DNA from: a virus
Length of the DNA: 64,000 nucleotides
Direction: 5' to 3' (one strand)
IMG/VR virus record: IMGVR_UViG_3300028195_000001
Span: 1 to 64,000 of that record
In this document: positions 1 to 51,255 of the stretch, one piece after another
Layout of the letters: each line of letters begins with the position of its first letter
How positions within the stretch are numbered: the stretch's first letter is position 1
Program-made: the position numbers and the translations under genes
Notes under the pieces: model-generated
What the model was told of the DNA's origin: nothing
Database searches by the model: none
Seen by the model: the letters and a program-made list of their open reading frames with translations, nothing else

Positions 1-225
1 TGTTGCGGTTGCTACATCCATAGGTGCATTGATACTACCTGGAACTGCGGTAGGTTGCAACCCCAAAGCTGTTGCGGTTGCTACATCCATAGGTGCATTG
101 ATACTACCTGGAACTGCGGTAGGTTGTAACCCCAAAGCTGTTGCGGTTGCTACATCCATAGGTGCATTGATACTACCGGGAACTGCGGTAGGCTGTAACC
201 CCGTAGCTGTTGCGGTTGCTACACT
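1..225. repeat. 69-bp tandem repeat, 3 full copies plus a partial one; may continue left of the window
   Basis: Units at 1-69, 70-138 and 139-207 are near-identical (tgttgcggttgctacatccataggtgcattgatactacc.ggaactgcggtagg.tg.aacccc...gc), and a fourth starts at 208. On the minus strand each unit encodes TAVPGSINAPMDVATATALGLQP. Confidence 0.9.
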
Positions 226-6474: not shown

Positions 6475-7680
6475 CTAGAACGGGTTAACCGCGTCTTCGG
6501 GAATTTCTTCCGGCATGTCGCCACTGGGTAGTGACTGTTGTGCCGTAGGAGCAGGCAGAGCGTTCAAACGTTGTTCTGCCAAACCCATAAACATGAACAG
6601 ATCGCGCCAACCATCCTGTGAATACACTGTCGATACCATTTGCAGGTAAGCGGCATATTCTTCGTCCGTCAACTGGCGAGTACCCATTTCCACCGTCTTG
6701 CCACCGTCTACACCTTGAGGACGTGCTTCCGGGTTAAGCACCGGAATGGATTCAACTTCACCGTCCAACAGAGTAAACTCAGTGATTGCCGTAGGCGGTG
6801 TAAAGTTGTTCAACGATACAGTCAACCGAGCAGCATACACAGGAGCGTGCGGATTGTCCATCGTAGGCCGACCTTCAGGACGATTGCGGAAACAAGGTGT
6901 GTCCGTACCATCCAGCTTGCCGATATACGAGAACGGGTTCTGGATACCCAGAAGTTCTTGACCGTCATAGCGACGACCAGTGTTCCCACGATGTCCCACG
7001 AGTGCCAACTGATTACCTACGTTCACACCCTTAATCGACATCAATTCGCGGCGGTCAATGTCCCACACAATGTACGTAAAGGTTTCACGACACATCGGAG
7101 GAGCTTTGCTACCGTCCGGCTTAGTAACCCACTGACCAAACGGGCAAGTCAGGCAAGGGAAGTCAACTTTTTCCACGCCGTTTTCACCATGAGCGTATCC
7201 GATCTTATGAGTCACACCCATGCGATAGTCATACACTTCTTGACCATCGTTGCTGAACCAGGGGAGGAAACCATTAGGCGTTGAGCATACAGGACGTTGT
7301 GCAGAACTCACACGCCGACCTTCGTTGTCAAACTGCCACATGGTACGTCCACCAACACCACCGGCCTCCACCGCAGACTTGGTAACGGGGTTTTCCCACA
7401 TCCAGTCTACTGCGTTCAGACGATGCCACACTAGCGAATCTACCAACAAGAAATCCAGGTGTTGAACTTCTTCCACGTTTGCTGCATCATTATCGTCGTT
7501 GATAATAATGCTACCGAATGCACCTACCCACGTTTGAGAGTTCCGTTGCGGAATTTCAATGCGGCGAATGCGCGGGGTCTGCCGACGCTCATTAGCGAAC
7601 ACATCGGGGTTGCCCATTTTTTCTTCATTTGCAAGTGCCTGAGCAAGATAATCAGGCATGTCGTTAGTTGTTGCACCCAT
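6475..7680 (-). CDS. hypothetical protein with an SSB-like acidic C-terminal tail (...DMPEEIPEDAVNPF)
   Basis: Track ORF 6475..7722. Start reassigned to ATG 7678-7680, preceded by AAGGAGAAACTCTAATG. The gene has its own promoter (7713-7741) and terminator. The acidic tail ending in PF resembles SSB/gp2.5-type tails, but there is no other motif. Confidence 0.55.
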   Translation of the reverse strand: MGATTNDMPDYLAQALANEEKMGNPDVFANERRQTPRIRRIEIPQRNSQTWVGAFGSIIINDDNDAANVEEVQHLDFLLVDSLVWHRLNAVDWMWENPVTKSAVEAGGVGGRTMWQFDNEGRRVSSAQRPVCSTPNGFLPWFSNDGQEVYDYRMGVTHKIGYAHGENGVEKVDFPCLTCPFGQWVTKPDGSKAPPMCRETFTYIVWDIDRRELMSIKGVNVGNQLALVGHRGNTGRRYDGQELLGIQNPFSYIGKLDGTDTPCFRNRPEGRPTMDNPHAPVYAARLTVSLNNFTPPTAITEFTLLDGEVESIPVLNPEARPQGVDGGKTVEMGTRQLTDEEYAAYLQMVSTVYSQDGWRDLFMFMGLAEQRLNALPAPTAQQSLPSGDMPEEIPEDAVNPF

Positions 7681-7712
7681 TAGAGTTTCTCCTTGATTTA
7701 TTGATTGACTAT

Positions 7713-7741
7713 AGCTTATCACAGAATTAGAAATTTGTCAA
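7713..7741 (-). promoter_or_regulatory. sigma70-type promoter (TTGACA-N17-TGaTAAGCT)
   Basis: Minus strand: TTGACA 7736-7741, 17-nt spacer, TAAGCT 7713-7718, with TG at -15/-14. Confidence 0.65.
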
Positions 7742-8802: not shown

Positions 8803-8847
8803 ATGGTACTGATTTACTATAATATATATATAGCAAATCAGTACCAT
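8803..8847. repeat. 45-bp palindromic element (13-bp perfect arms around a (TA)n core), copy 1
   Basis: atggtactgattt (8803-8815) / aaatcagtaccat (8835-8847) flank actataatatatatatagc. An almost identical element in the same + strand orientation lies at 33692-33739. Confidence 0.9.
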
Positions 8848-14843: not shown

Positions 14844-16640
14844 CTAGTCATTTTCCATGTGGGAGCATTGGTTTTCCCACAGGACTTTATAAGCGTCCAA
14901 CATACCCCTGTCGGCAACATCTAAGAAACATTTCAGACACATACCTGTTTGAACGAATGCTTCCAGCTGGTCGCCCTCAATTTTCACAACGTCTATTTTC
15001 CCTTCCTTGCAGTACCAACACTGGGTACGTCCTGGGAAACGTTGTCCTTCTATCCATACAGAGGAGGGTTCTCCGTCTGTTAAAAGAGGCGGGAACTTAG
15101 GTACAACCGTAGGTACGGTGCTACCTTCAATCTCCTCTTCATCTAGGTCGTAAGGTTCTTCTTCCAGATAGGTGAAGCAACCAGGACAAACGTTGTACAT
15201 TTTATCACCGTGTTCGTATGTTTGTCGTTTGATTCTCAGGGCTAGTTGTTCACAAATATCACAGGTGAAATATAGGTCGTAAGGTTCTCCTTCCAGATAG
15301 GTGAAGCAACCAGGACAAACGTTGTACGTTTTATCACCGTGTTCGTATGCTTGTCGTTTGATTCTCAGGGCTAGTTGTTCACAAATATCACAGGTGAAAT
15401 AGTTTTGCTGGTCATCGTCCAGAACATCTCGTGTCCAACGTTCATCTCCATTTGCATCTTTGATTAACACGCCTCCGTCCATCATCCACTGAAGGTCGTC
15501 TAATGCAAAGTCCGCTCTTTGTCCCTTGCATTGATCGCAGACAGCAAAGCCTCTAACGTATGTTGCATCATCCTCCCAAATAGTGTGGTTACACTGGCTA
15601 CAAATAGTCGCCATGTGTCCGGTAGCTTTGTGTAGGTAGATGACAGAAGAGTTGCCATCAGAGGTTTGTGTCCACTTCTCATATAACTTCTTGTTGTTCA
15701 TCCACAAGAAGTTATTAGGTCGGAATGCTTCAGCAGATGAACCTGCATCATGACCATGCCGTAGGGTTTGGTTGTAGGAAAACCCACGAATGTTCTCGTA
15801 AGATGATGTGTGATACAAGTTTTCATCACCCCATTGATCGTCATTCCAAGCATAGGCATATCGAGAAGTTTGGGGCATCGGTGTGTAAACCATCTCTGTA
15901 TCGTGCCACAAATCGTGGAAGTGAACGAAACGTGCCACCTGATTTAGCAACTCGTTAACGATAGCGTAGGCATCAGCATTATGATACCGATAGTACCCTA
16001 CAGCAACGTTGAACCCAAGTACCCCCAGTTGCTCTAACGAAACGATGTCGGTATAACTACCCCAGGCAGGAACGAAACCGGATTCAGCTAAACGTTCATG
16101 AAAATCCGCATCGTCGTACTGATACGTTTTAGCATCACTATCACCAGTACAATCGAATTCAACCATCCAATTGTAATGATCGGCTGGTAAACCATGCACA
16201 GCAGGGTCAAAGTAACGTGCGGTGCTACGTCCTGATTCTTCCCCTGTTGTAAGCAAGATGTCCGGCGGGTTTTTCATAATCTTGGATAACAAATCCATGA
16301 CTATGTATACCCCCAAGCGATCATCGAGTTGACCGTTGTAGATAGTTTCTTCATGTGTGTAACGTTCAGCACAGAAGGGCGAGACACCGAAATGGTTAGT
16401 ACGTTCATACTGTTGTACACTGTCCATGTGGGCTACAGCCAACACTTTGCTACCACGTTTGAGATACCCATACTGTTGACCGTCCGGGGTATCCACAACT
16501 TGCATGTGCTTCATCTGCTTCAGCAACCATTCTTCTGGTTTCAGGCAGATGTCCTCCATACGTTCATAGTCCAGAAACTTGTACAGAGGATGGTACTTCG
16601 GGTGATACTTTTTGATGTGTGTATAGAGGGGGTGCTTCAT
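14844..16640 (-). CDS. M28/M42-like metallopeptidase-fold N-terminal domain fused to multiple zinc-ribbon modules
   Basis: 598 aa. Metal-ligand-like series VAHMDSV, QLDDRLGVY, TTGEESG, YRYHNADAY. The C-terminal half has CSQC..CDQC, two copies of CDIC..CPGC (129-bp tandem duplication) and CWYC..CLKC. Confidence 0.45.
   Translation of the reverse strand: MKHPLYTHIKKYHPKYHPLYKFLDYERMEDICLKPEEWLLKQMKHMQVVDTPDGQQYGYLKRGSKVLAVAHMDSVQQYERTNHFGVSPFCAERYTHEETIYNGQLDDRLGVYIVMDLLSKIMKNPPDILLTTGEESGRSTARYFDPAVHGLPADHYNWMVEFDCTGDSDAKTYQYDDADFHERLAESGFVPAWGSYTDIVSLEQLGVLGFNVAVGYYRYHNADAYAIVNELLNQVARFVHFHDLWHDTEMVYTPMPQTSRYAYAWNDDQWGDENLYHTSSYENIRGFSYNQTLRHGHDAGSSAEAFRPNNFLWMNNKKLYEKWTQTSDGNSSVIYLHKATGHMATICSQCNHTIWEDDATYVRGFAVCDQCKGQRADFALDDLQWMMDGGVLIKDANGDERWTRDVLDDDQQNYFTCDICEQLALRIKRQAYEHGDKTYNVCPGCFTYLEGEPYDLYFTCDICEQLALRIKRQTYEHGDKMYNVCPGCFTYLEEEPYDLDEEEIEGSTVPTVVPKFPPLLTDGEPSSVWIEGQRFPGRTQCWYCKEGKIDVVKIEGDQLEAFVQTGMCLKCFLDVADRGMLDAYKVLWENQCSHMEND
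15145..15402. repeat. 129-bp tandem duplication (2 copies, about 3-4 mismatches) inside 14844..16640
   Basis: 15145-15273 and 15274-15402 are near-identical. Each encodes the 43-aa module YFTCDICEQLALRIKRQ.YEHGDK.YNVCPGCFTYLE.EPYDL. Confidence 0.9.
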
Positions 16641-25236: not shown

Positions 25237-25500
25237 TTAGTACACCCTCCACCAACTAACATAGACGAGTTCACCGACTACGTTGTACATATAACAAACG
25301 TTGTCATGCCATTCTACACGATGAATTAGTGATTGGCCATATAATTGCATGTCCCTTTCTATATAACGTTCTACGTTCTTATACGAACTAGCGCTAAAGT
25401 AGCGAAACGGGGAGATGTCGTAGTTAACTATCGCTCTTTCATTGTCAATACAAAACCGTACCCTTTCATCATCTGCCAACCATATCTCATATTCAGCCAT
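25237..25500 (-). CDS. ERxIE-motif small protein, array member 5
   Basis: Start moved to MAEYEIWLADD (GGAGGA upstream). SYKNVERYIERDMQLY ... HRVEWHDNVC. Confidence 0.55.
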   Translation of the reverse strand: MAEYEIWLADDERVRFCIDNERAIVNYDISPFRYFSASSYKNVERYIERDMQLYGQSLIHRVEWHDNVCYMYNVVGELVYVSWWRVY

Positions 25501-25756
25501 ACCAGTATATCCTCCGTAATTTACCATACGTATAGACAAAGCACATCTCTCGTAACCACACAATACGAATATCGTATGTACTACTGTGTTGACTTTGTAT
25601 CCAAGTTTCTATAGCACGTTCAGCATCACGTATAGTGAGATAACACAGGTGACAAGAATAAGAAAACCAATCTGCCATTTCCTCCCAGGATGAAAAGTTT
25701 TCATCTCTGTCCTGGCAGATTTTAATGGTCGATAGGTTTAGGTAATAGATGTTCAT
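25493..25756 (-). CDS. ERxIE-motif small protein, array member 4
   Basis: Start moved to MNIYYLNLS (ATGA overlap). TIRDAERAIETWIQSQ ... IRIVW. Confidence 0.55.
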   Translation of the reverse strand: MNIYYLNLSTIKICQDRDENFSSWEEMADWFSYSCHLCYLTIRDAERAIETWIQSQHSSTYDIRIVWLREMCFVYTYGKLRRIYWYG

Positions 25757-26052
25757 ACGTTCTCCCACCCTGCTATGGCGAAAATTCCTACCTCATCCGT
25801 TGATATATAATGTATCATACATACCTGAACTATTTGATTAATGGCAAAAACATCTGGGGTGTGTTTCACCCAGGTTATGCGCCTAACGGTAACATTCCGC
25901 CACGTTTGACACAAACGTTCTACCTTAAGTTCAGCTTCCTGTATGGTAGCATACGACTTAGACTCAATCATGAAGAAACGTTTAGTTTTCTCCAAGTATG
26001 AAAAGTCTAAATTAAGCATATAATCCTTATGTTCAAGGATAACGTATCTCAT
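25753..26052 (-). CDS. ERxIE-motif small protein, array member 3 (divergent)
   Basis: MRYVILEHKD ... TIQEAELKVERLCQTW ... RRITWV. GGAGGAGGT lies directly upstream. Confidence 0.55.
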   Translation of the reverse strand: MRYVILEHKDYMLNLDFSYLEKTKRFFMIESKSYATIQEAELKVERLCQTWRNVTVRRITWVKHTPDVFAINQIVQVCMIHYISTDEVGIFAIAGWENV

Positions 26053-26291
26053 ACCTCCTCCTTATCGTACCATAAACGTATGTATAACTTATTACTGTCT
26101 ATACGACGGACACAACAAACGTTATCCACCCACTCCACCCGGAGGTTCTTAGCCCACTGTTTAGCGTGGTGATGGACTTTTCTTTCTATCCAACGTTCTA
26201 TATCTCGTTGTGTCCAATTAGGAAGGATACGTTTGCGATGTACATCATCGTACAACCCATAAAAAGTCCAGTAAATTCGTCGTTGTTTCAT
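26049..26291 (-). CDS. ERxIE-motif small protein, array member 2
   Basis: QRRIYWTFYG ... TQRDIERWIERKVHHH ... LRVEWVDNVC. Confidence 0.6.
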   Translation of the reverse strand: MKQRRIYWTFYGLYDDVHRKRILPNWTQRDIERWIERKVHHHAKQWAKNLRVEWVDNVCCVRRIDSNKLYIRLWYDKEEV

Positions 26292-26518
26292 GATTCATAC
26301 CATAAAGCTACCCACAACCGACCATCATCCAGATAAACTTCACAACTTGTTTCTGTGTCCCATATAACAGACATACGATCTTTGACTCGATTGGTGAATA
26401 CGATTGCCCATATCTTATCTTCTATAACACGTTGAATTTCTCGTGTAGTAGGTAAATCAGGCGTAGGTTCATAATGTGTATCATTCCCAGATGAACTACA
26501 AAACTTCCAGAGAATCAT
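26288..26518 (-). CDS. ERxIE-motif small protein, array member 1
   Basis: TTREIQRVIEDKIWAI ... MSVIWDTETSC ... LWVALWYES. Confidence 0.55.
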   Translation of the reverse strand: MILWKFCSSSGNDTHYEPTPDLPTTREIQRVIEDKIWAIVFTNRVKDRMSVIWDTETSCEVYLDDGRLWVALWYES

Positions 26519-26519
26519 A

Positions 26520-26873
26520 TTACCCCCTCATATTCTGCGGATACCAAACCATTTCGTATTCACCCCACTTAGTAAGGTTGGGTGAAACACGCTCGAAGTG
26601 AGCTTTTTCATACAGGGCTTGAGCAGGAATGTTACTCTGTACCACATGCAAATGCAATGGTTTGTCATAAGCTATTTGTTTAGCTATGTCCAAAACCATT
26701 GTAGCATAACCTAAACGTTGGTACTCAGAGAATATTTCTAATCCGTGTATCCAAATTCTTGAACCTATTTCTGTTAACCCACAACCACCAACGTATTCAC
26801 TGTTATCATATAGTAAAATAACGTAAGTGTATACACAATGATCGTCTTTCACTACGAAATTCATGTTAATCAT
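26520..26873 (-). CDS. GNAT-family N-acetyltransferase (minimal, 117 aa)
   Basis: Acetyl-CoA motif A-like EYQRLGYATMVLDIAK, and AQALYEKAHFERV (A-x-x-L-Y-x-K-x-x-F). Confidence 0.65.
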   Translation of the reverse strand: MINMNFVVKDDHCVYTYVILLYDNSEYVGGCGLTEIGSRIWIHGLEIFSEYQRLGYATMVLDIAKQIAYDKPLHLHVVQSNIPAQALYEKAHFERVSPNLTKWGEYEMVWYPQNMRG

Positions 26874-26875
26874 GA

Positions 26876-27163
26876 TTAGTCCTTAATCATTAACCTTAGA
26901 TTGCGAAAGGTTCTGGTAGTCATACGAAAACCTAGTTTTTTATACAGGGCAATCGCTGTGTAGTTTGTTACCGATACGTGTAGGTGGTAAGGAGGTGGGA
27001 ACACCTCAAATACCTTATTAAGCATAGCCGTAGCTAAACCCTGACGACGATGTTCAGGACGTACATTGATGCTTTCTATGTACGTACAATCGGGTTGGGG
27101 GTCAACGATTGTTAACCCCTTCCCCTGTACCTTGACGATGGTTGCGTTATGCTTGACGTTCAT
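26876..27163 (-). CDS. GNAT-family N-acetyltransferase (minimal, 95 aa)
   Basis: INVRPEHRRQGLATAMLNKV (V-x-P-x-x-R-x-x-G-h-A) and AIALYKKLGFRM. Confidence 0.7.
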   Translation of the reverse strand: MNVKHNATIVKVQGKGLTIVDPQPDCTYIESINVRPEHRRQGLATAMLNKVFEVFPPPYHLHVSVTNYTAIALYKKLGFRMTTRTFRNLRLMIKD

Positions 27164-27183
27164 CAGAACGTACCAGTAAGGGA

Positions 27184-27267
27184 TTACTTCTTATTCATGT
27201 AGGCGATGAACATCAAGAACAAGAGGAACATCCCGATCAGGATTAATTCGTTGGTTGTAATGGGCAT
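27184..27267 (-). CDS. possible 27-aa hydrophobic miniprotein
   Basis: My own translation is MPITTNELILIGMFLLFLMFIAYMNKK. It starts 1 nt after the upstream TAA and fills the 27164-27268 gap. Confidence 0.35.
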   Translation of the reverse strand: MPITTNELILIGMFLLFLMFIAYMNKK

Positions 27268-27268
27268 A

Positions 27269-27535
27269 TTAGCCCTCCATTAACTCAAATGCTTTTTGTC
27301 GGACTGATACATCTCTGGGTAAACGTTCTGCCGCAGCTTCGTCGTACCCAGTAGTAACAGCAATGGTTGGGGGCATACAGACACAGAAGGATGGATAAGA
27401 CCTTGCTTCCTGTGTTGCTGTGTGCCAGTCGGTGATTAACAACCCATGTATCTGTTTGGGTGTAATCTTAAAGTATCGGCAATCGGTGTGGTTACGAGAA
27501 TGTTTGATTACCAGGACAATGATGTGTGTTCTCAT
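27269..27535 (-). CDS. hypothetical protein
   Basis: 88-aa track ORF with an ATGA-type overlap upstream. Confidence 0.5.
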   Translation of the reverse strand: MRTHIIVLVIKHSRNHTDCRYFKITPKQIHGLLITDWHTATQEARSYPSFCVCMPPTIAVTTGYDEAAAERLPRDVSVRQKAFELMEG

Positions 27536-27903
27536 AGGTAAGTTTTCTCGTTGTAAATGAATTTATCCCAGGTATACCGGGGGATGTTAACACCGTTAGA
27601 AATCAAAACGCTATAGGTTGCCCCATAACGTGCGCCACCTAGTGGGAAGGAACGTTCCTCTGTGATTTGCACACCTTCACGTTGGTAGCAAACGTGCCGG
27701 TTTTGATCGAGAAATACTTGAGCAACCAACACCCAATCATGTTCCAGTTCGTACCAACCAACGATCTCGATAACGTTTTCTTCTTTGTGGTATTGACCGG
27801 TGAGAAAAGTAACATTTTCATCGGTAGCATGATTAGCAACCATGTCCAGAACGTTCTGAATAAGACGTACATCTGATGGCTGTGATTTAGTTGATATTGG
27901 CAT
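27532..27903 (-). CDS. hypothetical protein; homologous to the N-terminal half of 28238..28777
   Basis: GVNIPRYTWDKF versus GVLIPQLTWDLF, and IVGWYELEHDWVLVAQVFLDQNRHVCY versus LTGWDADFEDEYPFLYFVNEDGTFMYH. GGAGGA SD. Confidence 0.55.
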   Translation of the reverse strand: MPISTKSQPSDVRLIQNVLDMVANHATDENVTFLTGQYHKEENVIEIVGWYELEHDWVLVAQVFLDQNRHVCYQREGVQITEERSFPLGGARYGATYSVLISNGVNIPRYTWDKFIYNEKTYL

Positions 27904-27905
27904 TT

Positions 27906-28241
27906 TTATTCCTCCAATACATTGCTGATACGAATAACGTTAAACTCAATTGTACCTAAACGTGGCTCTCTACCCCACGTACCGACATTGAACATCTGCA
28001 AGGCATGGTAGAAGGTATCAACAGTTGAGTACGATGTGACCAATTCGTCTGTACCAACCTTATAAACGTTGACCGTACCATCTTCCTGCAAGAAAACGTC
28101 ATACTTTACCGCAATGTGAAACGGTGTGTATAACCCTAGAAAACCCGCCCAACCATTACCTATTACAGAGAAACACGATTCTTCATGAGCAAAGAAATCA
28201 GGCAGGTTATTGAACGTTAAGCTGTCCTCAATAAAAGTCAT
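27906..28241 (-). CDS. hypothetical protein; resembles the C-terminal half of 28238..28777
   Basis: SLTFNNLPDFF..GFLGLY..DGTVNVYKVG..STVDTFYHAL versus AVTFPLPDNMV..GVLGIV..YGSVVFYFEG..STQSFDNYCA. Confidence 0.5.
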   Translation of the reverse strand: MTFIEDSLTFNNLPDFFAHEESCFSVIGNGWAGFLGLYTPFHIAVKYDVFLQEDGTVNVYKVGTDELVTSYSTVDTFYHALQMFNVGTWGREPRLGTIEFNVIRISNVLEE

Positions 28242-28777
28242 GAGAAGATAACCTCTATGCCATGCTTAGCACAATAATTGTCAAAAGACTGGGTGGACAT
28301 GAACGTTGTAGAATGATGTCCCTCAAAGTAGAATACGACACTACCGTAATCGTCGCGTTTACCTTGTAGTTTACCATAGAACTTACCTTTGTCAACGATA
28401 CCCAATACTCCGACGGTATCACTCGTCCATACCATGCGAACAGGCCAATCGCTCTCAACCATGTTGTCAGGTAAGGGAAAGGTTACGGCTAATGCTAGGT
28501 CGGAGAATAAGTCCCAAGTAAGCTGCGGGATAAGTACCCCGGCTAACCGCATCGTTTCCCAACTCAGTTCGATAACCTTTGCCTCTGCAATGTAGCCTAT
28601 TCCGTGATAGTGGTACATGAATGTACCATCTTCGTTCACGAAGTACAGGAAGGGGTACTCATCTTCAAAATCAGCGTCCCACCCTGTAAGGACAAGGGTA
28701 TGGCTATCTTGGTCAAGGTATGCCCTAACGTATAGCAGGTTATGTGCTTCTGCTTTTCGTAACAGGTGTTCTAACAT
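28238..28777 (-). CDS. hypothetical protein (fused counterpart of the 27532/27906 gene pair)
   Basis: Track ORF 28238..28951. Start moved to MLEHLLRKAE (ATG 28775-28777, AAAGGAAA upstream), because the track N-terminus overlaps 28740..29213. Confidence 0.5.
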   Translation of the reverse strand: MLEHLLRKAEAHNLLYVRAYLDQDSHTLVLTGWDADFEDEYPFLYFVNEDGTFMYHYHGIGYIAEAKVIELSWETMRLAGVLIPQLTWDLFSDLALAVTFPLPDNMVESDWPVRMVWTSDTVGVLGIVDKGKFYGKLQGKRDDYGSVVFYFEGHHSTTFMSTQSFDNYCAKHGIEVIFS

Positions 28778-29213
28778 AACGTTTCCTTTCTTGGTAATCT
28801 TTTTCGCTGGTAAATCCAGCCTTGATACGTAGTTGCATTGCTGTGTGCGAGTAATAATTAGCATCAGCCGCAGCCCGGATGCTACTGTATTGTACACCAT
28901 TCCAGGTACAAGGTATAGACCTATCTCCCCTGTCTGGTACATCTTCATCACAGGTATACCCTGCTTGTATCCTATTCCATAACGTACCCGGTAAAATGCC
29001 TAATGTTATCGCGGCTTGCCGAATACTAGGGTAGGTCACATCATTCCAGGTACATTCGATAGCACTACCGGGCAATCGGGTATCAGCATCACAAACGTAC
29101 CCCCTACGTAGATGACGTTGGAAGGTATGAATATTATACCCATTAGCTTCCGCAGCACCTACTACTGATGGATAGGTTGTACCATTCCAGGTACATAGTT
29201 TAGTGTTGGGCAT
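28740..29213 (-). CDS. DNA-binding protein candidate with three tandem NUMOD1/HTH-like repeats
   Basis: Start at ATG 29211-29213 (GGAAGGA upstream). Three units of about 47 aa: CTWNGTTYPSVVGAAEANGYNIHTFQRHLRRGY, CTWNDVTYPSIRQAAITLGILPGTLWNRIQAGY, CTWNGVQYSSIRAAADANYYSHTAMQLRIKAGF. Confidence 0.55.
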   Translation of the reverse strand: MPNTKLCTWNGTTYPSVVGAAEANGYNIHTFQRHLRRGYVCDADTRLPGSAIECTWNDVTYPSIRQAAITLGILPGTLWNRIQAGYTCDEDVPDRGDRSIPCTWNGVQYSSIRAAADANYYSHTAMQLRIKAGFTSEKDYQERKRYVRTPVTKSRST

Positions 29214-29247
29214 GTTATCCTTCCTATAATTGTTACCAGGACAGTAT

Positions 29248-29271
29248 GTACCTAAGCCACCTCTTAGGTAC
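29248..29271 (-). other. hairpin without a U-tract, downstream of the cold-shock-like gene
   Basis: gtacctaag (29248-29256) / cttaggtac (29263-29271), 9-bp stem with a 6-nt loop. Confidence 0.45.
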
Positions 29272-29290
29272 ACACAAGCCCGATGACAAT

Positions 29291-29497
29291 CTATGTAAGA
29301 GAAACATTACGGGCTACGAAACCTTTGTCGGTGATTTCTACCTCAAACAATACCTTCGTACCAAAGGTGATATTGTCAGGCAGAGGGAAATTCCAGATAA
29401 CAGTGTCGTAACCTACTCCGTCACCTTCAATGATAGCGTATTTCCCAGGTTCACTAATGTAACGAACTGTACCTTGAATCTTTTGATTTTTGTTCAT
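29291..29497 (-). CDS. cold-shock-domain/OB-fold-like small protein
   Basis: Start moved to MNKNQKIQGTVRY (GGAGGT 4 nt upstream). GTVRYISEPGKYAIIEGDG..DTVIWNF...GTKVLFEVEITDKGFVARNV follows the CspA layout (G-x-V-x-h-h...G-h-h...V-x-F-x-h...G-x-x-A-x-N-V). Confidence 0.5.
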   Translation of the reverse strand: MNKNQKIQGTVRYISEPGKYAIIEGDGVGYDTVIWNFPLPDNITFGTKVLFEVEITDKGFVARNVSLT

Positions 29498-29515
29498 TGT
29501 TACCTCCATAAAATA

Positions 29516-29540
29516 GGGCAATCCTCTTTGTTTTCTACCC
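29516..29540 (-). repeat. GGCAATCC..GTTTTCTACC repeat, isolated copy A
   Basis: gggcaatcctctttgttttctaccc lies between the stop of 29535..29831 and the SD of 29291..29497, and is preceded by an A-run. Confidence 0.8.
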
Positions 29541-29831
29541 GGTAGTGTGCTGTTGATAACGTACCTCGTTACCTTCCAACAATGCCAGAACTTTGTTAGT
29601 ATCTAGCAAACGTAACTTGTGATGCTTCTCACCTTTCATGAAAGGGCTGTTAAGATGATACCCCATCGTTTGCCAATTGAACAAGGTGCAAACGTGCTTA
29701 CCAGCTTGATCGAACAAAGTGAAGGAATGGAATGTACCTTTATCCCACACTGTATCATAGGTGTAAGCTGCATCAAAGAAAGGTTGGAGTATGACCTGAT
29801 AAACAAAGGGTAATCTGAGTGTTTCAAACAT
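29535..29831 (-). CDS. hypothetical protein
   Basis: 98-aa track ORF. Confidence 0.5.
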   Translation of the reverse strand: MFETLRLPFVYQVILQPFFDAAYTYDTVWDKGTFHSFTLFDQAGKHVCTLFNWQTMGYHLNSPFMKGEKHHKLRLLDTNKVLALLEGNEVRYQQHTTG

Positions 29832-29866
29832 GCTAACCTACTTTCGTAAAGATAAGGGTTAAAAAA

Positions 29867-30044
29867 GGGGCAATCCCGCTGTTTTCTACCTCTGTAAAAA
29901 AGGGGCAATCCGACCTTAAAAAAAAGGGGCAATCCGACTGTTTTACCGCGCCCCTAAAAGAGGCCAATCCGGTCAAAATTCAGACGAGAGATTACCCCTA
30001 AGTTAAAGCAACTGTCAGGAAGGCCAATCCCGCTGTTTTTCACC
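29867..30044 (-). repeat. cluster of five direct GG(G/C)CAATCC(N2-3)CTGTTTT(C)(T)ACC repeats in a 208-bp non-coding gap
   Basis: Copies start at 29867, 29902 (truncated), 29926, 29962 (variant) and 30022. All are in the same orientation and each is preceded by A4-8. Spacing is 35/24/36/60 bp. Confidence 0.85.
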
Positions 30045-30810
30045 AAACAAATTGCACCCAATCCAACGTTTGGACGTTCCAGTGATCGAGAACTTGCAGC
30101 AATCGTTCCGGGTTCAAAGACCGTAACGTATGGCCTTTAGAATTATCCTCTGGATGGTAAAAGCGGGTAGCCTTAATATCGGTATGGTTATCCCGGTCAA
30201 CTAACTCCACACAGGTGAGGATATGCCATTCACCTTCTGCCTCAGCTTCCAGATAACCTTGCCCGGAAAGCTCAGTAACAAAGCGCATCTTCAAAGGGTT
30301 AACAATTGCCGGGTAAAAGACCTTGACCAAATACTCAATATCATCGCGGTAAACCGCCCCGCTGGTGAGCCTTACCAAGTCACTTACAATCTTGTTACGT
30401 TGCCGATTAGCTTCTGCCCAGTGAATGCTTCGGGTCTGCCGGGTTTTCCAGGTATAGTGAACGTCCCAGATCAAGAAAATCGGGTTAAGCTGCCAGGGAA
30501 CGTTTTTATATACCCAGAACGCTTTTTGTAAATCTGAGAAGATACGTTCCAACCAAATCGAGTAATCAATCTTACGATTATGTCGCCAGAACGTATAGCG
30601 TGACTGAACCTGGAAGGCCGGTTGTCCTAACAATTTTCCCACGATCTTAATGACCGTTTCTTCCAGGTGATGCCCAACGTTTGCGACAACGTGACGACAG
30701 TGTTGGTACAGGGGAATGTTGAGAACACGGCCTATAACACCGGAAATAAGCCAGCCTAACAAGCAGTAAAACATAATCCACAACGTGTGATACAGTGTAT
30801 CTTGAGACAT
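30040..30810 (-). CDS. hypothetical membrane-anchored protein (first gene of the leftward arm)
   Basis: Track ORF to 30846 starts at TTG; ATG 30808-30810 (MSQDTLYHTLWIMFYCLLGWLISGVIG) is preferred. One N-terminal TM segment. Confidence 0.5.
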   Translation of the reverse strand: MSQDTLYHTLWIMFYCLLGWLISGVIGRVLNIPLYQHCRHVVANVGHHLEETVIKIVGKLLGQPAFQVQSRYTFWRHNRKIDYSIWLERIFSDLQKAFWVYKNVPWQLNPIFLIWDVHYTWKTRQTRSIHWAEANRQRNKIVSDLVRLTSGAVYRDDIEYLVKVFYPAIVNPLKMRFVTELSGQGYLEAEAEGEWHILTCVELVDRDNHTDIKATRFYHPEDNSKGHTLRSLNPERLLQVLDHWNVQTLDWVQFVW

Positions 30811-31040: not shown

Positions 31041-31069
31041 ATTTTACTACGATTCCTATCAAAATGCAA
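31041..31069 (-). promoter_or_regulatory. candidate leftward promoter at the left edge of the iterons (TTGCAT-N17-TAAAAT)
   Basis: Minus strand: TTGCAT 31064-31069, 17-nt spacer, TAAAAT 31041-31046. The -35 is weak. Confidence 0.3.
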
Positions 31070-31073
31070 GTTT

Positions 31074-31297
31074 TTTCACGTTTTGCAAGAAATTTCACGT
31101 TTTTTGACTAAAAACCCTAAAATTTCACGTTTTTTCCCAGAAATTTCATGAATTTTCACGTTTTTTCCCAGAAATTTCACGTTTTTTCATGGATTCATGA
31201 ATAATGTATATTTCACGAATTCTCCCCAAAACCCCATTTTTTTCTCTTTTTTTTCCGCACGATTTTTTTTCCTCAAAAATTCACGTTCTTTTTCACG
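31074..31297 (+). repeat. iteron array: nine same-orientation TT(T)CACG(T/A)T-rich repeats
   Basis: tttcacg at 31074, 31093, 31123, 31154, 31175, 31211 and 31291, plus variants at 31255 and 31280. Most are followed by T5-8. A 30/31-bp unit cacgttttttcccagaaatttca is nested twice. Confidence 0.85.
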
Positions 31298-31559
31298 ATT
31301 TTTTTCCTCCCACTGTGGAGTGTAACGTTGGCTGTAACGTTTGGGTCTTGACTACACGAAAAGCTATTAACGATGTACATACTAGAACAGATGGGCTACC
31401 CAGGGGCGGATTCTTGACTATAGGAAAAATGACCTGGAAAACGTGTAATAGACTATAGACATAGTAATTACAGTGTACTATTACATACCTATGCTATATA
31501 TGCATATAGGGGTTACATGAAGTGTAGGACAATTTGTGGGGTTTTGCCCTACTCAACTC

Positions 31560-31734: not shown

Positions 31735-31764
31735 TTGACTCGGTTTCAAATTTCATGGTATAGT
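31735..31764 (+). promoter_or_regulatory. rightward promoter (TTGACT-N18-TGgTATAGT)
   Basis: TTGACT 31735-31740, 18-nt spacer, TATAGT 31759-31764, preceded by TGG. Confidence 0.5.
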
Positions 31765-33369: not shown

Positions 33370-33400
33370 TACACACACATAGCACGCTTCGCATAGTCAA

Positions 33401-33420
33401 TACACTGTAAGTACAGTGTA
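33401..33420. repeat. 20-bp palindrome TACACTGTA-AG-TACAGTGTA
   Basis: 9-bp perfect arms (33401-33409 / 33412-33420) with a 2-bp centre. Geometry is operator-like. Confidence 0.7.
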
Positions 33421-33431
33421 ACGTAGTATGA

Positions 33432-33470
33432 AACCTAGCAACGTTAGATAGATTGTAACGTTGCTAGGTT
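33432..33470 (+). terminator. terminator-like hairpin after 32215..33369
   Basis: 15-bp perfect stem aacctagcaacgtta / taacgttgctaggtt with a 9-nt loop, followed by the T-rich attgctttgc. Confidence 0.45.
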
Positions 33471-33545
33471 ATTGCTTTGCTATACATTATAACATCATAA
33501 TATATTAATACTATATGATATACTATTACATTGTAATAACATTGT

Positions 33546-33611
33546 AGTTAGGCTTACCTAAAAATTATGTTAGTTTGTACCAACGTTGTGAGTTAGGTTA
33601 AGCTAAAAATT
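33546..33611 (+). repeat. two 21-bp direct repeats AGTTAGG.T.A..CTAAAAATT, 45 bp apart
   Basis: 33546-33566 and 33591-33611 match at 18/21 positions. Each contains an internal TTAG(G)..(C)CTAA dyad. Confidence 0.7.
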
Positions 33612-33691
33612 CCGAAAGGTTAGTCTAAAGCTCAGTTTGACCCCCTCACCGTATTTGTAAAAAATTTAGGGAAAGTGACATTTTTGAGGCC

Positions 33692-33739
33692 TATGGTACT
33701 GATTGTCTATATATATATATATAGCAAATCAGTACCATA
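33692..33739. repeat. 45-bp palindromic element, copy 2
   Basis: tatggtactgatt (33692-33704) / aatcagtaccata (33727-33739) flank gtctatatatatatatatagca. Near-identical to 8803-8847. Confidence 0.9.
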
Positions 33740-33819
33740 AGGGGTTTTCCTGTCACTTTGCCTGTTTTCCCACTGTATGCTAGCACAAAGTCACTTCCAA
33801 AGTATCACAAATGAAGCCT

Positions 33820-33832
33820 ATGGTACTGATTT
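33820..33832 (+). repeat. isolated left arm (half-site) of the palindromic element
   Basis: atggtactgattt follows agcct, as in copy 2 (aggcct). No right arm is present. Confidence 0.7.
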
Positions 33833-33864
33833 ATATAAATTTCAAAAATAAATGACAAAAACCC

Positions 33865-33893
33865 TTGACATTCATGACATATTATGGTACACT
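33865..33893 (+). promoter_or_regulatory. sigma70-type promoter (TTGACA-N17-TGgTACACT) at the head of the rightward arm
   Basis: TTGACA 33865-33870, 17-nt spacer, TACACT 33888-33893, preceded by TGG. A GTCACTT site lies at about +20. Confidence 0.6.
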
Positions 33894-33938
33894 TTAAGGG
33901 AGTTAAAACAATGTCACTTAGGGAGTAAATAGAAACTA

Positions 33939-49764: not shown

Positions 49765-51255
49765 ATGGCTACTGAATTTTTTGGGCCTGATAGTGGTATT
49801 GATACCAAAGACTATCTGCTGATGATGGATGGTACAACTGCCATCTCCCGTCCTGAGCAGCTATTAGGTCACACACTAACTGATGCTAACGTTGATTTGT
49901 CGGACGCTCTGACTGTCACTCGTGTACGACTGAAAAATGGTCGTATCAAGACTGTCGTTCAGACCAAGCGTGCGCCAGAGGAACGTGGTCGTCAGTATAC
50001 CGTCGGCTTCCCGTCTGGGGCGCTGTGGACACCTGCTATGGAGCTTACGCTGCGTACTGGGTGCGAAAAAACCTTTTACATGAAGTACCTCTGTCCTGAT
50101 GACCGTCGGTACAACCATGTGGAAATCATGCCGGATGCTTTGCTTGACCCGGCTGTTCCTGAAGGTGATCTAATTACGGTTGACGAGGAAAGTATCATTA
50201 CTTCCACTTCGACAATTCGTATTTCGGAACAATTCCGTCTGTGGGCCGTAGGCTTGCAGCCGATCTATGACATTGGTACAGCAGAACTGCATACAATTGA
50301 GTTCACAACGGCGGATTGCCCGTCCTGCACCGATGTTGTTGGTCTTGGAATGATTACAATGGGTGGTGACGGTATTGCTGTTCCCGAAGCGGAACTAACT
50401 GATGACCGTTTTGCCACACAGACAACCCTGACTACAGGTGGCGGTGCTGCTGATTACGCCGTTGGTCTGTGGACAGAAGGTGCGATTGTGTTGGCAGGTA
50501 CTTCCGACGCTGTTACGCCTGCTGCGGGTACAGCTGGTTCAATCTTTGTCTCCGGCGACGGTGGCCTGAACTTCGGTGCGGTCACTGGTGTTGTCGAACC
50601 GATCTGGGACTTCGCTCGTTTAGGCGAGAATATCCTGGCGGTTGGTGGAGTTGGTGGTGCTGCTGCAAAAGTGTATCTGAGTAATAACAACGGGGCGACC
50701 TGGACTGCTATTACATCGGCTGCGCTGCCTGCGACTGAAACAATCGTTTCAATCGACGTTGATGAAGAAACAGGTAACTTCTACATGGTGTCCGAAGCGG
50801 GGACGTTCCTCAAGGCTGACATTAGCGGTTCAACAGTTACCATTGTTGATATTTCTGCTAATCTGGCTGGAACACCTACTGCTGCTTGGCGCGTAAAAGT
50901 GCTGGCTAAAGATCATGTCGCCGTTGGTGGCGCTGATGCTGGTGGCTCTTGGTACGAAGAAACCCTGGATGGTGGGGAAACATTCGCTGAGTTCGCAACT
51001 GGGGCTGGCGCTTCTGTTATCCGAGCTATCGCTGGTACAAAATTCCGCACAATCGTTGGCGCAGGAACGGGATTGTTCATCCGTGATATGCTGACCAACA
51101 TGGAATGGAATTCGGTTACGTTGGAAAATGGTACGTCGGTCACTGGTAATTACACCGATGGCGCAGAAGGCGTGGATGGTGATTTTAACCAATTCTGCTT
51201 CTGCACCGATGACGGTGAAGTTGTCTTTGGTAAGGCGTTTTACCCCAACGCATAA
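49765..51255 (+). CDS. major tail protein candidate with a C-terminal Asp-box (BNR) beta-propeller-like domain
   Basis: 496 aa with AGGAGG SD, followed by a terminator-like hairpin. Asp-box-like motifs are SGDGGLNF, SNNNGATW and TLDGGETF. The tail-tube assignment is positional. Confidence 0.4.
   Translation: MATEFFGPDSGIDTKDYLLMMDGTTAISRPEQLLGHTLTDANVDLSDALTVTRVRLKNGRIKTVVQTKRAPEERGRQYTVGFPSGALWTPAMELTLRTGCEKTFYMKYLCPDDRRYNHVEIMPDALLDPAVPEGDLITVDEESIITSTSTIRISEQFRLWAVGLQPIYDIGTAELHTIEFTTADCPSCTDVVGLGMITMGGDGIAVPEAELTDDRFATQTTLTTGGGAADYAVGLWTEGAIVLAGTSDAVTPAAGTAGSIFVSGDGGLNFGAVTGVVEPIWDFARLGENILAVGGVGGAAAKVYLSNNNGATWTAITSAALPATETIVSIDVDEETGNFYMVSEAGTFLKADISGSTVTIVDISANLAGTPTAAWRVKVLAKDHVAVGGADAGGSWYEETLDGGETFAEFATGAGASVIRAIAGTKFRTIVGAGTGLFIRDMLTNMEWNSVTLENGTSVTGNYTDGAEGVDGDFNQFCFCTDDGEVVFGKAFYPNA

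Follow-up and report, generated by a model that had tools for sequence, protein, structure and literature searches.

The window analysed here, a stretch of 64,000 nucleotides (nt), covers positions 1 to 64,000 of IMG/VR record IMGVR_UViG_3300028195_000001, a contig of ~82 kb from an uncultured siphovirus-like phage whose genes include those for the large terminase subunit (TerL), a tape measure protein of 2727 aa, PolA, a helicase and a protein of primase type. Genes to the left of ~30.85 kb are read leftward and those to the right of ~32.2 kb rightward, the sign of the GC skew flipping at this switch, and the 1.35-kb divergent region in between holds promoter-like sites facing both ways together with an AT-rich repeat array. 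The predicted leftward order is a promoter near 31.56-31.59 kb, gene A, five units of a short direct repeat, gene B, a sixth unit, gene C, gene D and gene E (Table 1), and it is this repeat family, clustered in and around the non-coding gap between genes A and B, that forms our subject. An earlier note, made from the letters of the window, had reported six copies in one orientation, a 208-bp gap (29832-30039) that four of them fill, an overlap with the stop codon of gene A and a position beside the Shine-Dalgarno (SD) sequence of gene C. All of this was borne out when the copies were re-located in the sequence, with the addition that the copy at 29516-29540, placed correctly next to the SD of gene C, overlaps the stop of gene B too, so that two units overlap stop codons.

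Read in the sense of the leftward genes, a full unit of ~30 bp consists of an arm, GGTRRAAAACAG, followed by a spacer of 1-3 nt, the core GGATTG(C/G)CC(C) and a T-tract of 4-8 nt. Four units (R1, R3, R5 and R6) have this full length, and the other two (R2 and R4) are halves with core and T-tract only. The units are asymmetric, with an invariant 9-bp core between flanks of more variable sequence, although it was through the core that the copies were found. In five of the six units a T-tract lies 3' of the C-rich core, and in R1 a -35-like CTGACA stands in its place. The arm of R1 contains the TGA stop of gene A (30042-30040) and that of R6 the TAG stop of gene B (29537-29535), the tail of R6 adjoining the GGAGG SD of gene C. 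Both stops lie in the same arm register, at which R3 and R5 carry TAA and TAG, in the frame of gene B. By our own estimate, a stop codon in all four arms would arise by chance about once in three, since three of the four purine-purine pairs after T are stops. Within R3 the core occupies 29926-29935 and the T8 tract 29918-29925; in R5, the reference copy, the T-tract ends 29 nt and the core starts 45 nt upstream of the start codon of gene B (29831). The units abut one another, at start-to-start spacings of 60, 35, 24, 35 and 352 bp, and Tandem Repeats Finder called no array at them. Identical stretches of 19 nt (R3/R4) and 15 nt (R1/R5) imply that part of the array is a recent local duplication. 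A repeated peptide encoded by the units was considered and dropped, the units being read in different frames.

How far does this cluster exceed what chance would supply? On the plus strand the core reads GGSCAATCC, and its six copies, all on that strand, fall within 29516-30030, i.e. 515 bp. Over both strands of the whole window the 9-mer occurs 7 times versus 0.68 expected, a count that none of 100 shuffles reached; the seventh match, on the opposite strand at 50313, lies in coding sequence, has nothing else in common with the motif and looks like a chance occurrence. Scored with a position weight matrix (PWM) of core and tail, the six copies reach 20.7-27.1 bits, whereas the next-best site in the window (7605, plus strand, in coding sequence) scores 18.8 bits and the maximum in shuffled sequence is 20.3. 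An nhmmer profile recovers the four full units at E = 6e-8 to 4e-5 and the two half units at E ~0.2, and the exact arm GGTRRAAAACA occurs in three of the units and nowhere else in the window. No copy of the motif was found in the other ~18 kb of the ~82-kb phage genome, fetched via flanking genes. The cluster is thus far beyond chance and confined to one locus, and the feature itself is real and statistically robust.

Table 1. Repeat units, genes and predicted signals at the array and related sites in the window
Feature	Coordinates	Strand	Sequence	Details or basis
R1, full unit	30015..30044	-	GGTGAAAAACAG-CG-GGATTGGCC-TTCCTGA	20.7 bits; nhmmer E 5.8e-6
R2, half unit	29955..29972	-	CC-GGATTGGCC-TCTTTTA	24.9 bits; apex of long hairpin
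R3, full unit, arm 2 nt shorter	29918..29947	-	GGTAAAACAG-TC-GGATTGCCCC-TTTTTTTT	26.7 bits; E 4.7e-6
R4, half unit	29896..29915	-	GGTC-GGATTGCCCC-TTTTTT	26.7 bits
R5, full unit, reference copy	29861..29890	-	GGTAGAAAACAG-CG-GGATTGCCCC-TTTTTT	27.1 bits; E 5.9e-8
R6, full unit	29510..29539	-	GGTAGAAAACA-AAGA-GGATTGCCC-TATTTTA	22.4 bits; E 3.9e-5
Rinv, degenerate gapped inverted full unit	29971..29998	+	ggtcaaaattcagacgagagattacccc	not significant alone as motif copy; 5' strand of hairpin in minus-sense RNA
Composite RNA hairpin, Rinv paired with R3 arm and core, R2 at apex	29918..29999	-		-30.8 kcal/mol, followed directly by U8
Possible seventh degenerate copy	29801..29825	-	GAAACACTCAGATTACCCTTTGTTT	codons 3-10 of gene B; 68% to reference copy; 12.3 bits, not significant
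Best motif-like site outside cluster	7597-7621	+	AACACATCGGGGTTGCCCATTTTTT	antisense within gene 6475-7722; PWM 18.8 bits, nhmmer E 1.3; within chance
Gene A, 256 aa, hydrophobic N-terminus, first leftward early gene	30040..30810	-		homologue searches
Gene B, 98 aa, between full units R5 and R6	29535..29831	-		family scans
Gene C, 68 aa, cold-shock-domain fold	29291..29497	-		structure model and PADLOC
Gene D, 157 aa, three tandem ~48-aa helix-turn-helix-type repeats	28740..29213	-		C-TWNG-x-Y-S-x3-AA... (protein motif); alignment to endonucleases
Leftward promoter-like site (11/12)	31587-31560	-	TTGACA-16-TATACT	nearest predicted one upstream of gene A and array
Next leftward promoter-like site, with TG	28395-28368	-	TTGACA-16-TAAACT	promoter prediction
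Rightward promoter-like site	31735-31764	+		in divergent region

One further unit had escaped notice. The letters ggtcaaaatt that follow the copy at 29962 had been taken for a degenerate arm of that copy; they are in fact the start of the inverted unit Rinv. In minus-sense RNA, Rinv is predicted to pair with the arm and core of R3 in a long composite hairpin, and both departures of its core from a perfect complement of R3 yield G-U pairs in the minus-sense RNA only. The hairpin folds at a z score of -3.04, equalled by 2 of 200 shuffles; this window was picked after the fold had been seen, and z <= -3 is also reached by 27 (5%) of the 534 87-nt windows taken from 26-34 kb. The Rinv/R3 hairpin with its U8 is a plausible candidate for an intrinsic terminator or attenuator after gene A. 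Single units fold no better than shuffled sequence (-2 to -8.5 kcal/mol; z -0.7 to +0.5). The earlier note had judged their internal GGG/CCC dyad too short for a terminator; the dyad is itself broken in four of the six copies. Both Rinv and the long hairpin had been overlooked. The R4-R5 stretch gave no fold signal, and neither did the gap in full, read on one strand (z -0.9) or the other (+0.3). The broken dyad and the lack of a fold in single units and in R4-R5 argue against structured RNA as the common denominator of the repeats. A comparison with Rfam gave no match, either at gathering thresholds or at E <= 10, to any family including ToxI, CsrB-type RNAs and CRISPR-DR, the models of which represent only some repeat families, and no tRNAs were detected.

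What, then, might these units do? They belong to a well-known general kind, direct-repeat clusters in phage regulatory regions. No promoter-like site is predicted between the array and the one starting at 28395, so genes B-E would depend on transcription that crosses the array. Left-arm intergenic spaces elsewhere carry textbook TTGACA/TATAAT promoters and terminators with 8-10-bp GC-rich stems, which implies that the host signals of this phage are conventional and that the units are of neither kind. A sigma-70 promoter within the units was rejected, no promoter-like site being predicted in them, and the phage-specific promoter suggested in the earlier note has become unlikely because the motif exists at one locus only, in the window and the other ~18 kb alike; no phage RNA polymerase was recognised either.

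The reading that we favour, as possible rather than probable, is that the array consists of oriented putative protein-binding sites on DNA that gate transcription from gene A into the next early genes. In the first early operon read leftward, the repeats would make up a cis-regulatory array peculiar to this lineage and located in spacers that are transcribed. On each full unit, in double-stranded form, a sequence-specific protein would find an asymmetric site to dock; it would bind as a monomer or carry several DNA-binding domains. Occupied sites would pause or block RNA polymerase coming from gene A, a roadblock suggested by the orientation of all sites one way relative to transcription and by the lack of a predicted promoter before genes B-E, and the RNA hairpin of Rinv and R3 with its U8 would supply a basal, protein-independent stop after gene A. 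The binder would most plausibly be the product of gene D, a helix-turn-helix (HTH) protein with three such units, apparently derived from a homing endonuclease and encoded just downstream, in which case the circuit would be autoregulatory. That a protein binds, that it recognises DNA rather than RNA, which protein this is and how transcription responds are inferences; the repeats with their orientation and uniqueness, the missing fold of single units, their lack of promoter or canonical terminator character, the family of gene D and the fold of gene C are results of the analysis. The suggestion of the earlier note that the repeats are recognition sites for a sequence-specific factor, and neither CRISPR repeats nor simple terminators, fits the anatomy best.

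A roadblock of this kind would be a clustered counterpart of the stoperators of cluster A mycobacteriophages, which depend on orientation and, with the T1-type repeats, are the nearest precedents. Stoperators sit in short gaps between genes, often beside stop codons. Those of L5 and TipsytheTRex share with the array their asymmetry, their orientation relative to transcription and their position in short intergenic spaces near stop codons. They are, however, 13 bp long, are spread in ~20-30 copies genome-wide and belong to temperate phages with a repressor that combines an HTH with a stoperator domain, whereas the array has 24-30-bp units, six copies at one junction, no sequence similarity to stoperators and no such repressor or integrase recognised. 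The repressor of cluster A mycobacteriophages is monomeric, has two DNA-binding domains, recognises asymmetric sites and stops elongation (PMC9283540). Similarly, the 22-bp repeats of the siphovirus T1 and of Stevie are asymmetric, predominantly intergenic and oriented with transcription, and their function is not known (PMC4319613). They occur in 16-20 dispersed copies with the consensus VWATAGCAYKWWTTGYTAAAAV, whereas the units described here are clustered at one locus, in a phage unrelated to T1.

Several observations weigh against oriented protein-binding sites. The spacings within the gap (24, 35, 35 and 60 bp) are out of step with the helical repeat of DNA, and both stoperators and T1-type repeats are dispersed over the genome rather than clustered. 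Unlike temperate L5 with its dedicated repressor, this phage yielded no recognisable repressor or integrase in family scans, which compared 38 open reading frames (ORFs) with Pfam and/or PHROGs, consulted the precomputed Pfam tables of the fetched contigs and covered a minority of the small ORFs at 11-25 kb and part of the right arm. An explanation at the RNA level suits the T-tracts and the hairpin with U8 just as well, the 19 nt that R3 and R4 have in common reflect a recent duplication that needs no function, and no related phage was found that conserves the array region. Nor does the motif occur beside the genes of the three GIY-YIG endonucleases related to gene D, on their contigs, and no repeat array lies within 4 kb of a nuclease-less relative of gene D (L193).

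Gene D is the only member of a DNA-binding family recognised in 24.7-30.8 kb. Its repeats are 35-41% identical to the C-terminal NUMOD1-type arrays of these three metagenomic endonucleases (P0077-P0079), on one of which Pfam recognises NUMOD1. The GIY-YIG catalytic domain (PF01541) is absent from gene D, which aligns with nothing but the C-terminal repeat region of these proteins and begins at the first repeat, with 77 bp of non-coding sequence upstream; judging by the alignment, it reproduces the repeats with which GIY-YIG homing endonucleases bind DNA and does without the nuclease. Its relatives in IMG/VR are one full-length endonuclease, with no DNA repeat array within 4 kb, and one nuclease-less protein of two repeats (L193, 3974-4276). 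I-TevI, a GIY-YIG endonuclease, is an autorepressor that acts on its own promoter via its DNA-binding domain. Gene D resembles regulators of the I-TevI type in having the same HTH-type repeats as the C-terminus of a GIY-YIG endonuclease, and differs from I-TevI in having no nuclease domain and in that its operator link to the repeats is only a candidate. The earlier note had put forward gene D as a natural binder: the 157-aa protein does belong to a DNA-binding family, but no link between proteins of its type and the motif turned up near the three endonuclease genes or at the two IMG/VR loci. Its three HTH units would fit a site of ~30 bp. A more specific scenario, in our view a long shot, is that this nuclease-less homing-endonuclease array has been domesticated as an elongation roadblock that reads clustered, oriented ~30-bp sites separating an immediate-early gene from the early genes after it, possibly together with the hairpin/U8 and the cold-shock protein encoded by gene C.

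Could the array operate in RNA instead? According to this unlikely alternative, the Rinv/R3 hairpin and U8 would terminate transcription after gene A, and at R4, R5 and R6 the core plus U-tract would give polymerase further places to pause or terminate as a back-up, or else would be bound by an RNA-binding protein, e.g. the product of gene C. CspA-family proteins melt hairpins and antiterminate, and the cold-shock fold of gene C is in keeping with such a role. The stability of the hairpin, the U8 directly after it and the G-U wobbles confined to minus-sense RNA all speak for termination, as does its position, where an operon-internal terminator makes sense and no promoter precedes gene B. So do the T-tracts 3' of the C-rich cores, the more so as runs of at least six U are rare in leftward transcripts, with seven in 30.8 kb, three of them at the array. 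Like intrinsic terminators, the array shows, in the sense of the transcript, 6-8 T after a stretch rich in C, and it has one composite hairpin with U8; unlike them, its single units are without a stable stem, and the composite hairpin is much longer and more branched than the clear terminators of the phage with their stems of 8-10 bp. The missing folds of the single units and of R4-R5, the unremarkable z of the gap as a whole, the 5% of local windows that do as well as a window chosen after the fact and the blank Rfam search all count against an attenuator, and a conserved, unstructured RNA motif of 24-30 nt would be unusual as a protein-binding RNA site. Attenuation would account for the T-tracts and for the hairpin, yet leave the remaining units unexplained. 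Alternatively, and this we consider rather doubtful, the units may be junctions or recombination substrates with little function of their own. Each would be the 3' flank (stop plus spacer) of a small early-gene cassette, spread by local duplication and by cassette gain and loss through recombination between units, with R2-R5 as empty junctions. Gain and loss of this sort has been proposed for the PeSL cassettes of T4-type phages, which consist of an early promoter and a stem-loop and are dispersed across the genome. Array and PeSL elements have in common that they are short repeated intergenic modules bordering small early ORFs, with possible cassette shuffling, whereas the units lack a promoter and a stem-loop and occupy one locus. 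The shared register of the stops of genes A and B and of the TAA and TAG in R3 and R5, the bracketing of gene B by full units, the identical stretches in R3/R4 and R1/R5, and the lack of homologues of genes A and B, in a region wholly unconserved among relatives of TerL, are all consistent with junctions. Yet not one of the numerous further junctions between small early genes carries the motif, the flanks have drifted around a core that does not vary (with the reservation, already made, about how the copies were found), and stop codons in all four arms are no great surprise by chance. In addition, a second assembly is 100% identical across 25462-30802, with neither microdiversity nor copy-number variation.

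An element for replication or segregation seems improbable, whether a second iteron set, a replication enhancer of the P4 crr sort or a centromere-like site, with an initiator or partition protein binding to it. It would account for direct repeats in one orientation with A/T-tracts, six in number where three or more are taken to mark such an element, that lie 1.1 kb from the AT-rich TTTCACG array (31069-31310, 30.6% GC) at the GC-skew and strand switch of a phage with its own primase-type protein, helicase and PolA. The iterons of the lambda ori, P4 ori and crr, and P1 incC and incA are likewise direct repeats of ~20 bp with A-tracts, and the strand switch and the second set 1.1 kb away would suit them. 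Unlike iterons, however, the units are irregularly spaced and out of helical phase, the gap is not AT-rich (45.2% GC vs 43.6% for the window), no initiator gene is adjacent and the two sets are unrelated in sequence. Moreover, no Rep, ParA, ParB, ParR or parM/parR family turned up among the 38 ORFs and in the Pfam tables covered by the family scans, and the N-terminus of gene A, the gene that separates the two arrays, is a hydrophobic segment of membrane type. The second iteron set and the centromere of the earlier note are weakened accordingly. Most improbable of all, in our estimate, is a transcribed RNA decoy directed against a host system, whether a mimic of CRISPR repeats (Racr or solitary units), a pseudo-ToxI or a sponge of the CsrA/Hfq type. 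Phage RNA decoys do exist, such as Racr (PMC10651486) and pseudo-ToxI (PMC3475682). Short direct repeats in a non-coding early phage region, their number grown by duplication, would be in line with a decoy, and a sponge came to mind because the unit contains GGA as well as A-rich and U-rich parts. ToxI-type arrays are regular tandem repeats of 34-45 nt, whereas here the units vary in length and in spacing; the array has neither its own terminator nor a clear promoter, gene B matches no toxin family, and Rfam offers no CRISPR-DR, ToxI or CsrB-type match. No array of the motif was found in 185,579 species genomes. Three further candidates were dropped. A CRISPR array or mini-array does not fit the irregular spacing, the abutting units and the lack of any array called by Tandem Repeats Finder, in agreement with the earlier note. 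A toxin-antitoxin pair of type III is at odds with the irregular units, the lack of a toxin match for gene B and the lack of a canonical terminator before gene B. Ends of a transposon or miniature inverted-repeat transposable element are contradicted by the presence of just one degenerate inverted unit, with no flanking duplication and no opposite-strand set elsewhere.

Is the motif shared by other phages? Searches of GenBank phages by megablast and tblastn returned no close relative, and IMG/VR held no relative of gene A and only TerL matches that are 28% identical. A large protein collection did contain relatives of TerL at 51-65% identity, from genomes of similar size; their contigs end short of the early region or have a different early region without comparable repeats, and no homologue of genes A-J was found on them. 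A 16-mer scan of IMG/VR produced 22 single matches, the level of chance, and a 23-nt pattern of arm plus core gave none in IMG/VR and six scattered single matches in the 185,579 species genomes versus ~2 expected by our own estimate. Going by current databases, no other phage lineage has the motif. A scan with a pattern of three cores retrieved unrelated tandem repeats only, including a widespread palindromic element, GGGGCAACCAC..GGGATTGCCCCTAC, that shares just the core searched for. Resemblances seen by eye to ops, boxA, CsrA sites and Cas13b repeats were discarded, as they rest on 5-9 nt or on low-complexity sequence, and a literature search with the motif string yielded primer sequences only. 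A widespread, unrelated palindromic tandem element, GGGGCAAYCAC(R)RGGGATTGCCCCTAC, which repeats every 26-46 bp, surfaced via the 9-mer it contains and is present at seven loci on metagenome and viral contigs (L040, L042, L054, L125, L134, L142 and L162). One of the TerL relatives (P0046, 893 aa) has a LAGLIDADG_3 domain (PF14528), a hint that in this group of phages an intein or endonuclease has inserted into TerL.

If the units are roadblock or attenuator sites, they would mark the border between immediate-early and delayed-early genes in a lineage with almost no known gene relatives, and would offer a concrete handle for dissecting the early programme of the phage. If gene D is the binder, a DNA-binding module of homing endonucleases would have been reused as a regulator, and a gene D roadblock, if true, would mean that a siphovirus of lytic appearance has reached a switch of the stoperator type by a new route. 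If, on the other hand, duplication is all that lies behind the units, there is nothing out of the ordinary about the locus. Since the motif is private to the lineage, its wider significance is limited for now.

Gene A has no homologue in 5.8 billion clustered proteins, and an exhaustive HMMER search over 1.84 billion representatives retrieved only itself. Gene B has no homologues either, and no match in Pfam, PHROGs or PADLOC, and its structure model is unusable (predicted local distance difference test, pLDDT, 46). The label 'cold-shock-like' that the earlier note had given to gene C holds good: its model (pLDDT 73) is a five-stranded barrel with CspA (2l15) as best match in the PDB at a template modelling (TM) score of 0.77, followed by CspB, CspE and the cold-shock domains of YB-1 at TM ~0.7, and PADLOC CSD_V matches it at E 9e-4, with Pfam below threshold. 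The 77-bp gap between genes C and D holds a strong hairpin, GTGTACCTAAG-AGGTGG-CTTAGGTACA (window 29219-29305, minus strand, z -4.7), with no T-tract after it.

The AT-rich array at 31069-31310, which could be an origin or operator region, is found where GC skew and strand switch, with gene A on one side of it and the leftward promoter-like site on the other. It comprises ~9 copies of (A)AATTTCACG (TTTCACG), each then followed by a T-run, and, near 31438, a single copy in inverted orientation. Gene A thus has an array on either side, this one and the one studied here, and in both the T-runs point away from it. Another repeat family, the palindrome ATGGTACTGATT-(~20 nt, TA-rich)-AATCAGTACCAT, is intergenic in both arms (8803-8847, 33693-33738 and 33820-33831). 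Its half-sites number five versus 0.42 expected, one of them just upstream of a TTGACA promoter-like site near 33866, and from its sequence it looks like the operator of a dimeric repressor. A perfect 15-bp inverted repeat, AACCTAGCAACGTTA / TAACGTTGCTAGGTT, is found at 33432-33470, in the 570 bp of non-coding sequence at 33370-33938, and together with the TA-centred palindrome gives the lowest folding z of 26-34 kb (to -9). Finally, two in-gene tandem duplications were noted: 69 bp in 3.2 copies (96% identical) at window positions 1-223, in the gene for a 582-aa Laminin_G_3 protein, and 129 bp in 2.0 copies (97% identical) at 15144-15401, in a gene for a peptidase-like protein of 598 aa.

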